Source: a virus
Direction: 5' to 3' (one strand)
DNA: 64,000 bases
IMG/VR virus record: IMGVR_UViG_3300042393_000799
The position numbers and the translations under genes were made by a program. Shown piece after piece: positions 1-8,487 of this stretch (its first letter is position 1; each line of letters opens with the position of its first letter). Under the pieces are notes generated by a model. That model saw only the letters and a program-made list of their open reading frames with translations. It did not search any database and was not told the origin of the DNA.

Positions 1-70
1 ATGCTTTAAGGATTCCTGGATCGTATACACCTTCGCTGACAAATTCTTCAAATAATTTGATATATTTCAT
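1..70 (-). CDS. 5' end (N-terminus) of another member of the MKxxKLFEEF N-terminal-motif family; gene runs off the window start
   Basis: ATG at 68-70 (rc); translation MKYIKLFEEFVSEGVYDPGILKA... continues past position 1; N-terminus matches the paralog family at 1121-8487. Confidence 0.4.
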   Translation of the reverse strand, partial: MKYIKLFEEFVSEGVYDPGILKA

Positions 71-100
71 GATTATAAATTTATTTATATACTATATATC

Positions 101-136
101 AAAATAAAAAAGGAGGTAACTTTAAAAGCACCTCCT
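101..136 (-). terminator. rho-independent terminator (hairpin aggaggt/acctcct followed on minus strand by T-tract)
   Basis: inverted repeat 111-117/130-136 with 12-nt loop; rc strand gives hairpin then TTTTTTATTTT; lies between gene 162-1112 and the partial gene at 1-70. Confidence 0.55.
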
Positions 137-161
137 CTGAAATATTATTTAATATAACTAA

Positions 162-1112
162 CTATTTTGCTATAAAAGCCGAAGTTGTTTTTTCACCATT
201 TCTTAAAAGATTAGCAACTCTAGAATATCCATCTAGTAAAACACCATCAACTACAACAATTTCTAATGAAAGATCTCTTGGACTTACATCATCATCAGTG
301 TAGCGTTCTTCTCCCGAATCATAATATTCTTTAAAATCAGGATCAGTTTTTAATAAAGACTTCATATCAAAATCGTCTATGTTTGCAAATGTTCTACCAA
401 CAATATCTTTTTTAAATCCATTTGGTATGTTTTCCTTTTCAGGTGTAATATCTTTAATATGTCTCCATACTTCTGATCCTTTTAAATCAGCATATTCATT
501 TACAATTTTATATGATTCATTTTCTTCTAAATCATTGTTTATCTGTTTATCCAAAACAGACATTTTGTCTTCATCCTTCTTAGCTAATTTTTGCAATACT
601 CTTTTAGTAGCACCGTCTGCATATTTAATGATAGCTTTAGTTGAATTAAATCTAGCTTCGATTTTTATTTTAGATACAAATTTAGTCAATGTTTCATTTT
701 CTTGACCAATGTTATCCATTAAATCAAGAATATCACTTTCTTGTTGTTCTAATGCTTCAATTTTAATATCTGCATTCGTTTCTGATCTTGCTGCACTTTT
801 AGGTGGATTAGGAGCATTGTAATCTAATTCATCATACTTACTTTCTAATTCATCTTCGAATTCTTCAATAGGATCACCTTCAATCTTTATCTTACCTATT
901 TCAACTCTAACTCTAACTAATTCTTCAGCTAATTTTTTGAGTTGTCTCTTTTTTGCACCATTTATAAACAAACCAGATATAAAGCTAAATAATCCTTCAC
1001 CAACAAGTGTATCAACTTCATCATATGTGTATTTCTCTTTTAGAGATTCATATAAATTATCGACATATTGTTTTCTGTCATTATAGTCTTCGTATGTTCT
1101 AATGTGTTTCAT
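162..1112 (-). CDS. hypothetical acidic coiled-coil protein; N-terminus MKHIRTYEDY is a divergent version of the family motif
   Basis: 316-aa ORF, minus strand, tight packing with neighbours. Confidence 0.5.
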   Translation of the reverse strand: MKHIRTYEDYNDRKQYVDNLYESLKEKYTYDEVDTLVGEGLFSFISGLFINGAKKRQLKKLAEELVRVRVEIGKIKIEGDPIEEFEDELESKYDELDYNAPNPPKSAARSETNADIKIEALEQQESDILDLMDNIGQENETLTKFVSKIKIEARFNSTKAIIKYADGATKRVLQKLAKKDEDKMSVLDKQINNDLEENESYKIVNEYADLKGSEVWRHIKDITPEKENIPNGFKKDIVGRTFANIDDFDMKSLLKTDPDFKEYYDSGEERYTDDDVSPRDLSLEIVVVDGVLLDGYSRVANLLRNGEKTTSAFIAK

Positions 1113-1120
1113 ATAACTTC

Positions 1121-6693: not shown

Positions 6694-6966
6694 TTATCTA
6701 ATTAATTTTGCTTTTGCAAGTTTTTCTTTTAATAGTTTACCAACTCTAGATTCAATTCCAGGAGATCTAAAAGAACCACCGATTTCGTTAGCTTCTTTTT
6801 TAATCAAATCAATTAAGTCATCAATAGCAACTTCAACATTAGCCATTAAATCTTCTTCTCTTGATTCTTCATCATCTGAAATAGTTCCATCAGATTTCTT
6901 TTCAGAAATAACCTTTGGTAATTCAATTTTATTTGCGAAAGCTTCGAAAGGTTTTGCGTATTTCAT
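6694..6966 (-). CDS. small acidic protein, degenerate family N-terminus MKYAKPFEAFANK
   Basis: 90 aa, last member of contiguous array. Confidence 0.45.
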   Translation of the reverse strand: MKYAKPFEAFANKIELPKVISEKKSDGTISDDEESREEDLMANVEVAIDDLIDLIKKEANEIGGSFRSPGIESRVGKLLKEKLAKAKLIR

Positions 6967-6999
6967 ACTATAAATATTTTTTTAATTATATTATATATC

Positions 7000-7587
7000 T
7001 TAATTAAAAAGCTCTTTTAATTTTTCATTTTTTACCATATTCATTACAGCTACTTCATAATTACTAGCTTCTGCATAGTTTGCACCCAAATAACTTAAAT
7101 ATTGTTCTTCTGTCTTAAGATCTCTAAGATATGCTGATTGAAATATTGCATAATCTAAGATTGATTCTTTCCAAGTATCATAATAAGCATGACCTAAATT
7201 AGTTCCACGTGCAGTAGTAGTTCTCTGTTTAGCTTCTTTCATACCAAACAAATTATTGTTAGATCTAAAGATATTACTTTGAAAATGGCCACTTTCTATA
7301 AGAGCTTGAGCTAATACAATATGTGGGTATTTTACATTAAGGCGTTTGAGTTCTTCTACCACAGCTTCTTTTGAGAATTCACTCTTAGAAAACTCATTAA
7401 CTATTAAGACTTTTTGCTCATATGGCATGTTAGTTACAAATTTAGTTGTAGCGTTCATTTTAGCCACATTATATGTGGTATAATAAGTAATTCCTAAGAA
7501 GAGCAAAGATGCTCCTACAGCTTTAAAGATTTTTCGGGGATTAATTCGTTTAAATGTTAACGATTCTTTACAATAGGTGTATAACAT
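7000..7587 (-). CDS. membrane-anchored glucosaminidase-domain peptidoglycan hydrolase
   Basis: N-terminal TM segment; motif HIVLAQALIESGHFQS...NNNLFGMK typical of mannosyl-glycoprotein endo-beta-N-acetylglucosaminidase (FlgJ-type) domain. Confidence 0.6.
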   Translation of the reverse strand: MLYTYCKESLTFKRINPRKIFKAVGASLLFLGITYYTTYNVAKMNATTKFVTNMPYEQKVLIVNEFSKSEFSKEAVVEELKRLNVKYPHIVLAQALIESGHFQSNIFRSNNNLFGMKEAKQRTTTARGTNLGHAYYDTWKESILDYAIFQSAYLRDLKTEEQYLSYLGANYAEASNYEVAVMNMVKNEKLKELFN

Positions 7588-7597
7588 AGTTTTAAAT

Positions 7598-7683
7598 TTA
7601 ATTGGTTAATATTGCTAATGTACACAAAAAAAACGACATAAAAAAATTATTTAGCGTTTATTTTCGATTTATTTTCATATAAG
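7598..7683 (-). promoter_or_regulatory. degenerate copy of the repeated intergenic cassette
   Basis: partial matches to ctaat(a/g)tacacaaaaaaa and ttattttcatataagtta; no clear GC hairpin. Confidence 0.35.
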
Positions 7684-8487
7684 TTATATGAAAGCTTCTA
7701 ATTTAGTTTGTAGTTTTTTAATTTCTTTAGTGGCAGTTACAATAAACTGCTCTTTCCAAGTAATATTGATCTTTTTCCAACTTTCTATCTTCTTAGCGAT
7801 AGAATCTTTCATTTGTTGGTTGTAATATGCCTCATCATTATCATAATTTTTGGCAGCATCTCTACTTACAATTTCAGACCATGTTGGCCATTCGTACCAA
7901 TCACCTTTGTCCTTTAAAGTTTGAACAATTTGTTCGTCATTGAGTTTTGAATTTGTTTCAATCTCTTCATGTGCCTTTATGACTCTAATTTCATAATTTT
8001 TAATGTCAGTATTTAGCTTTTCAGCTTTAGACATTTTCTTTATTTTATCAGCATATTCTTTAGTTAATTCACTAACGCCAGTTTTTGGAATATTGGTTTT
8101 AGTGATGTATCTATAATGAAGTCTTTGGATATTATGACCACCTGCATAAATTGCTTCAGTTGAAAATTGATAAGCAACTCCGTCTCTGTGGATTTGTGCA
8201 GTAATTTCAATGTTTCCTTTGGCACTTTTACTAACATTTAGAGAAAGTAAAGAGTCAGTTTGTTGTGTATAAGTTTCAACAGCTTTAACCATATCATAGA
8301 TTAGATTAAGTCTTGCAGATTCTCTGTCATATTTAGTAAATTCTTGGTTGAATGTTTTAACAAACCATGCTTCAGTAGCGGCAACCATTTCAACGATAGT
8401 AGGTTCTAATGCATCCAAAATAACATTGATAATATTTGTCTGTTTGGACTCATTTAGAAACTGATCAAATGACTTTAGTTTTTTCAT
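7684..8487 (-). CDS. hypothetical protein, MKKLKSFDQFLNE family
   Basis: 267 aa; conserved N-terminal motif; preceded by intergenic cassette. Confidence 0.55.
   Translation of the reverse strand: MKKLKSFDQFLNESKQTNIINVILDALEPTIVEMVAATEAWFVKTFNQEFTKYDRESARLNLIYDMVKAVETYTQQTDSLLSLNVSKSAKGNIEITAQIHRDGVAYQFSTEAIYAGGHNIQRLHYRYITKTNIPKTGVSELTKEYADKIKKMSKAEKLNTDIKNYEIRVIKAHEEIETNSKLNDEQIVQTLKDKGDWYEWPTWSEIVSRDAAKNYDNDEAYYNQQMKDSIAKKIESWKKINITWKEQFIVTATKEIKKLQTKLEAFI

Follow-up and report, generated by a model that had tools for sequence, protein, structure and literature searches.

A thirteen-residue N-terminal tag on unrelated proteins of an uncultured phage as a probable T4-like prohead leader

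The 64,000-nucleotide stretch of viral DNA analysed here, from IMG/VR record IMGVR_UViG_3300042393_000799 and referred to throughout as the window, has a GC content of about 31% and carries almost all of its genes on the minus strand. At least 14 of these minus-strand genes, 11 within positions 1-8487 and three at 15.3-17.0 kb, open with the motif MK-x-(I/V)-K-L-F-E-(E/Q)-F-(L/I/V)-(N/S)-E. Why should proteins that are for the most part unrelated share their first 13 residues? Is this tag a peptide signal or a nucleic acid element and, if it is a peptide, where does it send the proteins that bear it? The original prediction, made from the sequence alone, likened the tag to the capsid-targeting sequence (CTS) of the internal proteins of phage T4. 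We find that it probably is a leader of this type, which would bring proteins into the prohead core and then be removed by processing. We are less confident that the tagged proteins are injected and act against host defences. Every computational test that we ran agrees with the CTS-like reading, within which packaging, cleavage and injection are themselves inferences.

In T4, the internal proteins IPII and IPIII carry the CTS MKTYQEFIAE (PMC8442874). The CTS brings proteins into the scaffolding core and is then removed by the protease gp21; gp22, gp67 and gp68 are degraded, whereas the internal proteins and Alt shed only a short N-terminal peptide (PMC9958956, PMC5694885). This is the precedent for capsid targeting of internal proteins (PMC3012670, PMC9958956, PMC12373910), and all three T4 internal proteins are injected inhibitors of restriction enzymes (PMC12373910). 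Like the T4 CTS and the T4 ip loci, the genes studied here have a short N-terminal leader (10-20 residues in the T4 type) on otherwise unrelated, non-essential proteins (PMC8442874, PMC3012670, PMC12373910). Like the T4 CTS, the leader is amphipathic, contains aromatic-x-x-F-(I/L)-x-E (MKTYQEFIAE in T4, MK-HIK-LFEQFINE in the clade described here) and ends in (L/I/V)-x-Glu, which is the gp21 site. The two peptides share the initial MK as well, and the tag is three residues longer; they may be homologous, at a length too short to separate homology from convergence.

The original prediction placed ten consecutive genes with nearly identical N-termini in positions 1-8487 (Table 1). All ten open reading frames (ORFs) are there, on the minus strand and with the motif at their start, and most N-termini are near-identical, those of 4062-4865 and 6694-6966 being degenerate. 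The genes are not consecutive: motif-less genes at 2679-3482, 5218-5409 and 7000-7587 (a glucosaminidase) are interspersed among them, as is 162-1112 with only a degenerate tag. Nor is the array confined to this region, since further members lie at 15312-15911, 15942-16205 and 16494-16982, and possibly at 57644-58675. In terms of the pattern MK-x-(I/V/T/L)-K-(L/S)-F-(E/D)-x-(F/Y)-(L/I/V)-x-E, nine genes of 1-8487 match or come near it, and weaker forms are found in the remaining two, 162-1112 and 6694-6966.

Tag statistics were drawn from 228 unique tagged proteins, encoded by IMG/VR loci that matched a search pattern and by relatives of the window. The search pattern left positions 11-13 unconstrained. 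I, V or L occupies position 11 in 79% of the proteins and E occupies position 13 in 81%; at position 12, 48% have N and the others S, T or A. Position 14 can be A, S, K, E or G, and from position 15 onwards no conservation is left. The (L/I)-x-E rule at residues 11-13, which had been read as a prohead protease site, is thus followed at positions that the search did not fix, and conservation ends sharply after Glu13. The full-strength tag is N-terminal in 161 cases and internal in five among 3229 unique ORFs of the related loci. Within the window, a degenerate DNA pattern for residues 1-10 has five matches, against none in 100 dinucleotide-preserving shuffles, and a repeat search recovered a 39-nucleotide repeat family (D1) of nine copies with 69-95% identity.

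The degenerate tag pattern is present in at least 120 IMG/VR stretches, on contigs of 5-482 kb that are mostly of 26-41% GC, and across 185,579 genomes of bacteria and archaea (596 Gb) a longer pattern including x-N-E gave a single, spurious match. Without their tags, the 228 proteins form 124 clusters between which no similarity is detectable. Pfam families were found in a minority of them: NUDIX, AAA_33/zeta-toxin, CTP_transf_like (cytidylyltransferase-like), GNAT, ATP-grasp, DUF5661 and Tad3. Searches of Pfam, PHROGs and the PDB sequences returned no match for the small array proteins of the window, and the large ones (523 and 1049 residues) contain no recognisable Pfam domain. Among GenBank phages, neither megablast of positions 1-12000 nor tblastn of the 523- and 1049-residue proteins gave matches, and a 2981-residue concatenate of other window proteins found only DNA ligase and M42 peptidase homologs; the phage has no close relative in GenBank. 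The bare tag also had no tblastn matches there, a result that says nothing about its absence, as even an exact 13-residue match is estimated at E>10. The motif was not found in the published literature that we searched.

What kind of head do the viruses with this tag have? When T4 head proteins were compared with the tagged loci by local tblastn, homologs of gp20 and gp21 turned up next to tagged genes in a dozen loci, and Pfam identified Portal_T4 (1e-67), Peptidase_S77 (the former U9 family of the gp21 prohead protease; 4.6e-12) and Gp23 (1.6e-42). The order of these genes in tagged contigs is portal-protease-capsid, as expected of a lineage that shares the gp20/gp21/gp23-type head of T4, and 310 IMG/VR contigs encode this Gp23-type capsid protein. 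A tagged gene lies between portal and protease genes or between protease and capsid genes in 47 of the 68 loci that have all three; in T4, the prohead-core genes 67 and 68 are found between the portal and protease genes. At least seven contigs of 140-236 kb have the head module together with tagged genes found independently elsewhere on the contig. The closest GenBank capsid proteins are those of the huge uncultured phage LR756500 (51%), the Lak megaphages of Prevotella (42%), Tenacibaculum phage PTm1 (33%) and T4-like cyanophages (28%).

The window phage probably belongs to this head-bearing clade, because its genes have homologs of 40-79% identity on head-bearing contigs, because its array is syntenic with arrays of IMG/VR contigs of 199 and 256 kb, and because residues 930-969 of its 1049-residue protein are 85% identical to a segment in the scaffold region of four protease-scaffold proteins (those of related loci L209, L212, L218 and L219; loci are numbered in this way below). 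The N-terminal module of its 523-residue protein is 57% identical to the portal-adjacent protein in L017.

Peptidase_S77 makes up the N-terminal part of a protein of 580-694 residues whose remainder is scaffold-like and contains tandem 14-residue repeats, for example ..IKEYTNYLAE↓S.. and ..QYSEHVAE↓K.., in general form ..Y-x-x-(Y/H)-(L/V/I)-A-E↓K.. (arrows mark putative cleavage points). The spacing of this repeat, aromatic-x-x-aromatic-(L/I/V)-x-E, equals that of F7..F10-L11-N12-E13 in the tag and of Y4..F7-I8-A9-E10 in the T4 CTS. This suggests a mechanism. The segment K-L-F-E-x-F-(L/I/V)-x-E would mimic the scaffold repeat and, since the tag copies that repeat, we propose that tagged proteins co-assemble with the scaffolding core in the growing prohead. 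The scaffold-fused gp21-type protease would cut after Glu13, and the mature cargo would be retained in the head and enter the host with the DNA. The 316-, 523- and 1049-residue proteins would be polyproteins, in which cargo modules joined by degenerate leaders (E-S-hydrophobic-hydrophobic-x-E) are cut by the same protease. The cargo itself would be a fast-turning set of host-modifying, probably anti-defence, proteins.

The tags inside proteins bear on this directly. That the proteins are unrelated beyond the tag, as had been stated, is true of most genes; those at 162-1112 and 1121-2692 and the neighbouring 8585-11734 are instead mosaics of modules shared with other tagged proteins. The motif E-(S/L)-(V/I/M/F/T)-(V/I)-x-E occurs six times in the 1049-residue protein (shuffle mean 0.04), three times in the 523-residue protein and once among the 103 remaining proteins of the window. 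The sites in the 1049-residue protein are KFESFVNE↓S (residues 224-231), DESVVNE↓G (463-469 and 853-859), DESVVTE↓A (596-602), SESVVIE↓G (783-789), LELVVSE↓G (924-930) and EEFVEE↓S (about 970-975); they align with the N-terminal tags of L052_5204 and L022_8891, and the DNA repeat family D4 spans them. ESVVNE↓GRSINKI of this protein corresponds to the N-terminal DEFLNE↓ARSITKI of another, and its VNE↓GQFSW to an INE↓GQFSW directly behind the degenerate N-terminal tag that forms residues 1-14 of a further one. A homolog search with its scaffold-like module gave four short matches only, and a position-specific scoring matrix scan for internal tags, with a matrix that proved too strict, recovered only the near-perfect tag at residue 224.

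In the 523-residue protein the internal tags are VLESMVSE↓ (about 113-118), LVESTINE↓ (165-172), IDESIVNE↓ (about 414-419) and QLNE↓ (427-430), and these sites align with the N-terminal tags of stand-alone homologs (L154_1025, L015_9971). KVLESMVSE↓VVELVHVYDT matches the N-terminus KLFEQFVNE↓AIELVHVYDT of a stand-alone protein, and QLNE↓ANEY matches FVNE↓AKDA of a stand-alone protein of 106 residues, which shares 74% identity with the C-terminal module. Conversely, the N-terminal tag of the 523-residue protein aligns with an internal VKYFEQYLNE↓ of a 381-residue relative (L011_9728). Module A of the 316-residue protein exists as stand-alone tagged proteins of 196-200 residues and module B as the stand-alone tagged protein P0053; module B also stands behind an internal tag, KMFEEFVNE↓, in P0055. 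In P0058 module B is fused to a kinase through ..EALISE↓GVYDPGILKAFF, the exact point at which the tag of the window kinase ends (MKYIKLFEEFVSE↓GVYDPGILKAFF). The AlphaFold2 (AF2) model of the 316-residue protein has low confidence at the junction, residues 199-207. The portal-adjacent protein of L141 consists of a tag, an extra domain and SVLSE↓AVKVTPESD, where its L098 ortholog has the tag followed at once by EAMKVTPESD. Cargo domains have a single site, at the tag, and none multiplied within the folded domain. These alignments show that internal and N-terminal tags are equivalent, and the junctions are consistent with a protease site that separates independently functioning modules and hard to explain otherwise.

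Relatives of the 1049-residue protein with 440-1070 residues (in L039, L079, L080, L088, L114, L118 and L142) often start with a looser variant, M-x-x-(L/K)-x-(S/T/N)-F-(E/D)-x-(F/Y)-(S/T/I)-(K/N/Q). This variant may be a second leader class for large core or polyprotein members.

What does the tag carry? The protein encoded at 6113-6691 has the split beta-sheet fold of an ADP-ribosyltransferase (ART) with conserved residues of the nicotinamide adenine dinucleotide (NAD) site, and its fold neighbours are MbcT/RES, AcrF11, diphtheria toxin, PARP and ART-PolyVal. Like T4 Alt, it is an ART-fold protein of a T4-type phage with an N-terminal leader ending in Glu and predicted co-delivery with the DNA. 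Unlike Alt, it has 192 rather than 682 residues and fold neighbours of the H-Y-E type, while T4 Alt is an R-S-E-type ART; no sequence similarity to Alt was detected. The gene cut by the window end at 1-70 has its full length in L001:9482-10210, where it encodes a 242-residue AAA_33/zeta-toxin-like P-loop kinase (Pfam AAA_33), and in the window kinase the P-loop follows about 15 residues beyond the tag. One window cargo family has members of three kinds: tagged, tagged with a spacer, and tagless. A protein of the Tad3 family, inhibitors of Type I Thoeris, is the first cassette of a syntenic array (L014:4322-5083, tag MKTVKLFEEFLAE; L014 is the 256-kb IMG/VR contig 3300012346_000380). It matches PF25185 with E 8.2e-19 and 68 bits against a cut-off of 27, and the family is also present in L016, L010 and L011. 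No Tad3 homolog was found within the window.

The arrays change quickly. We compared the window, joined with L001, and the arrays of L011, L014, L015, L016 and L022, six syntenic arrays flanked in every case by sugar-metabolism genes on one side and tail-fibre-like genes on the other. Among their 27 tagged families, 15 were found in a single array and three in five of the six; the cassette turnover between relatives that the original prediction proposed to look for is therefore evident. Variable loci with cassettes that differ between relatives are also a feature of the T-even ip loci. The 242-bp segment 1607-1848 in the 523-residue gene is 97% identical to L012 and L013, contigs that otherwise share nothing with the window, which points to a single protein module having passed recently between different phages. 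The close relative L226 has a second array at 13370-15665. Its four tagged genes encode proteins of 155, 249, 247 and 94 residues and lie about 4.6 kb past the fibre genes, after glycosyltransferase and epimerase genes, so that there are several tagged arrays per genome. We propose that the 5' DNA ends common to the genes and the modules bounded by tags serve as sites for cassette exchange, fusion and fission.

We regard the tag system as a variant of T4 capsid targeting, with several departures from it. The consensus differs, with Asn at P2. The repertoire is at least 14 per 64 kb and at least 124 families in a partial sample, where T4 has three and about ten have been reported for the T-evens. 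The cargo includes enzymes, internal tags form polyproteins and the protease is fused to the scaffold. Propeptides on head and ejection proteins of giant phages of the phiKZ/SPN3US type are comparable in that a gp21-related protease removes them after Glu, that they are thought to target the prohead, and that paralogs have identical N-termini and several sites per protein (PMC5694885). Unlike the tag, they are mostly 80-160 residues long, with no universal short tag and with the cleavage motif (S/A/G)-x-E, and these phages have no array of small single-domain cargo genes. The polyvalent proteins of phages and conjugative elements (Iyer et al. 2017, PMC5512222) likewise combine several unrelated effector domains in one polypeptide and are predicted to be packaged, injected and cut; the ART fold matches ART-PolyVal-like proteins, and NUDIX and GNAT themes are shared. 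They differ in having an embedded zincin-like peptidase rather than a leader-derived site, presumably for the prohead protease, between modules, and the modules here also occur as stand-alone tagged genes.

Several observations weigh against a CTS-like leader on injected cargo. The original prediction expected a gp21-like prohead protease in the genome: one is found in relatives, some on contigs that also carry homologs of window genes, and none in the recovered sequence of the phage itself. Contig extension did not recover its own head module, so that the S77 protease is seen in relatives only; L001 adds 10 kb beyond the left end of the window and terminates in fibre genes, 17 kb examined of the 99-kb relative L226 and the examined part of a 212-kb contig reached by a further step had no head genes, and contigs on the right side stop at a tRNA cluster. 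Asn is the usual P2 residue, and P1' varies among A, S, K, E and G. The capsid protein starts with a tag-like MANLINE(A/S)E in 70 of 77 loci, an ambiguous parallel to the tag. As a capsid cleavage site MANLINE↓AE was rejected, as in the gp23/gp24 alignment it falls on the uncleaved extreme N-terminus (delta region) of T4 gp23, and KLYE44↓D is the likelier maturation site. PTm1, the nearest cultured relative, has the layout portal-x-protease/scaffold-capsid of the tagged clade and no tag in the 50 kb examined (175-224 kb); LR756500 has a capsid start MIKLINEAE and no tagged gene between portal and protease. Among the possible effectors, ART activity is a prediction only, and the Acb1-like/2H phosphoesterase match among tagged proteins, to the representative of the cluster of the third cassette (179 residues, e.g. 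L014:5398-5937), is weak and below the Pfam cut-off. Finally, most of the mature cargo is acidic or neutral (pI 4.6-8.7, with only two proteins at about 8.7-9.4), unlike the basic, DNA-retained internal proteins of T4, and some tagged proteins, chief among them the 1049-residue and portal-adjacent ones, may belong to a disposable core and not to the injected cargo.

This last point leads to the strongest alternative, that the tag does target the prohead core but that the majority of its bearers serve as accessories in assembly, to be degraded and expelled like T4 gp22, gp67 and gp68. Acidic core proteins are degraded and expelled in T4 (PMC9958956), the tagged gene next to the portal gene occupies the slot of genes 67 and 68, and the 1049-residue protein resembles gp22 in its many internal sites and scaffold-shared module. 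Against this, NUDIX, P-loop kinase, ART, GNAT and ATP-grasp domains and a Tad3-family inhibitor would make no sense as disposable scaffold, the rapid turnover of arrays among close relatives is typical of genes for host interaction and not of assembly genes, and the cargo domains carry one site at the tag and not many inside. We therefore regard wholesale degradation as unlikely, roughly a one-in-eight prospect.

Might the tag instead bind something other than the capsid scaffold, such as a tail, baseplate or ejectosome component, a chaperone, a timing or N-degron system, or an intracellular compartment built by the phage? The main array lies directly upstream of the tail-fibre-like genes in all relatives and, in a clade that unlike T4 is uncultured, packaging and cleavage are predictions. 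It is nevertheless the scaffold fused to the prohead protease in which the spacing of the tag recurs, most head modules have a tagged gene placed between portal and protease, the junctions derived from the tag share their terminal Glu with the sites of S77 proteases, and the tag resembles the T4 CTS. Such a partner seems to us marginally less probable still than disposal with the core.

Much less probable than either is that the 5' end acts as nucleic acid, either as a translation-initiation enhancer in a host that does not use Shine-Dalgarno sequences or as a recombination or homing sequence, and that the peptide has no function. The regions upstream of tagged genes are A-rich and lack a Shine-Dalgarno sequence, which is typical of Bacteroidota, the probable hosts of the clade. 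The genes starting at 5221 and 5762 have 5' ends that are identical, as originally noted, over exactly 30 nucleotides (ATGAAACACACTAAATTATTCGAAGAATTC), and CAC for His3 and CTA for Leu6 are over-used relative to background. This codon bias is restricted to those two positions; the synonymous use of the K, F, E and N codons is near background while the amino acids are at least 90% conserved. As synonymous sites are mostly variable, selection acts on the peptide. The E/Q and I/V/L substitutions are conservative in protein terms, degenerate tags occur at junctions inside ORFs, where translation initiation is irrelevant, and the 91 other genes of the window are presumably expressed without a tag. 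There is no conserved sequence upstream of the ATGs of tagged genes, and the T4 late promoter TATAAATA is not enriched (14 observed, 13.7 expected).

A role of the tag in secretion or as a lipoprotein signal, or an origin of the genes as diverged paralogs which have kept only their N-terminus, has in its favour the N-terminal location and shared start alone and is a negligible prospect, given that the tag is amphipathic with a net charge of about zero, has neither a hydrophobic core nor a lipobox Cys and is absent from the 185,579 cellular genomes, and that the unrelated cargo folds exclude simple paralogy. The tag is a virus-specific peptide signal, neither a host secretion signal nor an RNA element.

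With a CTS-like leader as the probable function of the tag, a wider picture can be offered tentatively, with a chance that we put a little short of even: a clade of large, uncultured phages of the T4 superfamily, with genomes of at least 236-256 kb, would use one virus-specific 13-residue 'zip code' to preload its capsids with an interchangeable arsenal of more than 100 families, including immune inhibitors (Tad3-like, Acb1-like), an ART, kinases and Nudix proteins, some of them as polyproteins with leader-derived protease sites. The targeting logic that serves three proteins in T4 would then serve far more of them in a distant lineage, an uncultured one. As the label is defined by its sequence and specific to viruses it can be used as a search key, which would yield a metagenomic catalogue of candidate injected host-takeover and anti-defence proteins, most of them without a known family. 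If the picture is true, the proteins that uncultured phages inject could be identified directly from sequence, and defences that work by signalling, for example Thoeris or the cyclic-oligonucleotide-based anti-phage signalling system (CBASS), would meet inhibitors brought in with the DNA, ahead of any phage gene expression; the Tad3-like proteins suggest that inhibitors of signalling-based immunity may arrive pre-made. The tag-bounded modules, stand-alone, fused and re-ordered, show the evolution of cargo by cassette exchange, and provide a natural template for the loading of foreign proteins into the capsids of Bacteroidota phages.

Table 1. Tagged genes and associated features of the window
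Feature	Position	Strand	Remarks
Tagged P-loop kinase gene, first 23 codons	1..70	-	Tag MKYIKLFEEFVSE encoded at 32-70
316-residue two-module protein, degenerate tag MKHIRTYEDYNDR	162..1112	-	Junction SYKIVNE↓Y at residues ~201-207
523-residue multi-module protein, N-terminal tag MKKIKLFEEFVSE and internal degenerate tags	1121..2692	-	
Tagged 100-residue cargo gene, family F1	3757..4059	-	Kept in 5/6 syntenic arrays
267-residue gene, degenerate tag MKIVKLFDDYLDM	4062..4865	-	
Tagged 113-residue cargo gene, tag MKHTKLFEEFINE	4880..5221	-	Homologs 44-69% identical in capsid-gene contigs L026, L088, L096
Tagged 112-residue cargo gene, tag MKHTKLFEEFLNE	5424..5762	-	30-nucleotide 5' identity with gene starting 5221
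Tagged 109-residue cargo gene, tag MKHIKLFEQFLNE	5769..6098	-	Homologs 71-79% identical <10 kb from capsid gene: L186, L187, L178
Tagged 192-residue ADP-ribosyltransferase-fold protein	6113..6691	-	Layout: tag, ~40-residue spacer, ART core
90-residue gene, degenerate tag MKYAKPFEAFANK	6694..6966	-	
Tagged 267-residue cargo gene, tag MKKLKSFDQFLNE	7684..8487	-	First gene of array transcription unit
Terminator-like hairpin	8531..8556	-	Between 1049-residue gene and array, just upstream of 7684-8487
1049-residue acidic putative polyprotein, ~8-9 internal tag-derived sites	8585..11734	-	
Tagged 199-residue gene, tag MKHLKNYTEYLNE	15312..15911	-	Homologs 54-56% identical in L065, L075, L089
87-residue gene, partial tag MKHLKTFQLFEDA	15942..16205	-	
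Tagged NUDIX hydrolase, tag MKHLKKYDQFINE	16494..16982	-	PF00293, 1.3e-12; domain from residue 21, right behind tag

In the T4 genome (NC_000866, 65.4-74.4 kb; L225), ipII and ipIII adjoin the lysozyme gene e and nudE, and ipI adjoins 57B (Acb1), a tRNA cluster and the gene for a deoxynucleoside monophosphate kinase. Glucosaminidase, Nudix, 2H phosphoesterase and kinase genes and tRNAs also surround or belong to the arrays of the clade, where several, unlike those of T4, are tagged. To the left of the window, L001:11205-18725 encodes three large repeat-rich fibre-like proteins, two with PTPTAT-type tandem repeats and one, of 1379 residues, consisting largely of collagen-like G-(T/S)-(N/S/D)-G triplets; these fibre genes have 75-89% nucleotide identity in the 99-kb Joint Genome Institute (JGI) contig L226. 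Between the gene for the 1049-residue protein and a further terminator-like hairpin at 12266-12291 lies 11767-12198, which encodes a 143-residue protein with a membrane-like segment at its start and in which 45-nucleotide DNA repeats (family D2) encode G/S-rich repeats.

The window as a whole is an auxiliary-gene region with genes for NAD salvage, KdsA, sugar enzymes, DNA ligase and tRNAs. Between 12 and 54 kb it is dense in NAD and nucleotide genes, namely NAMPT, phosphoribosyl pyrophosphate (PRPP) synthetase, NADAR, a nucleoside 2-deoxyribosyltransferase-like gene and Nudix (coordinates cited for this set are 39593-41173, 46444-47376 and 16494-16982), and the pair of NAMPT and PRPP synthetase looks like an NAD-reconstitution counter-defence module. 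Other genes are KdsA (12534-13286), an epimerase, glycosyltransferases, Thg1-like, YqeY and an M42 peptidase (26213-27304). The sole long plus-strand genes are at 58743-61842, where a 148-residue gene is followed by one for an 876-residue protein with N-rich, beta-helix-like repeats (NNxIGNxF...), which had no family match and is possibly a fibre protein or a depolymerase. At 61891-63781 and 32799-32873 there are seven tRNA genes (Ala, Ile, Ser, His, Leu, Val and Lys), and metagenome contigs of the phage break at the cluster.

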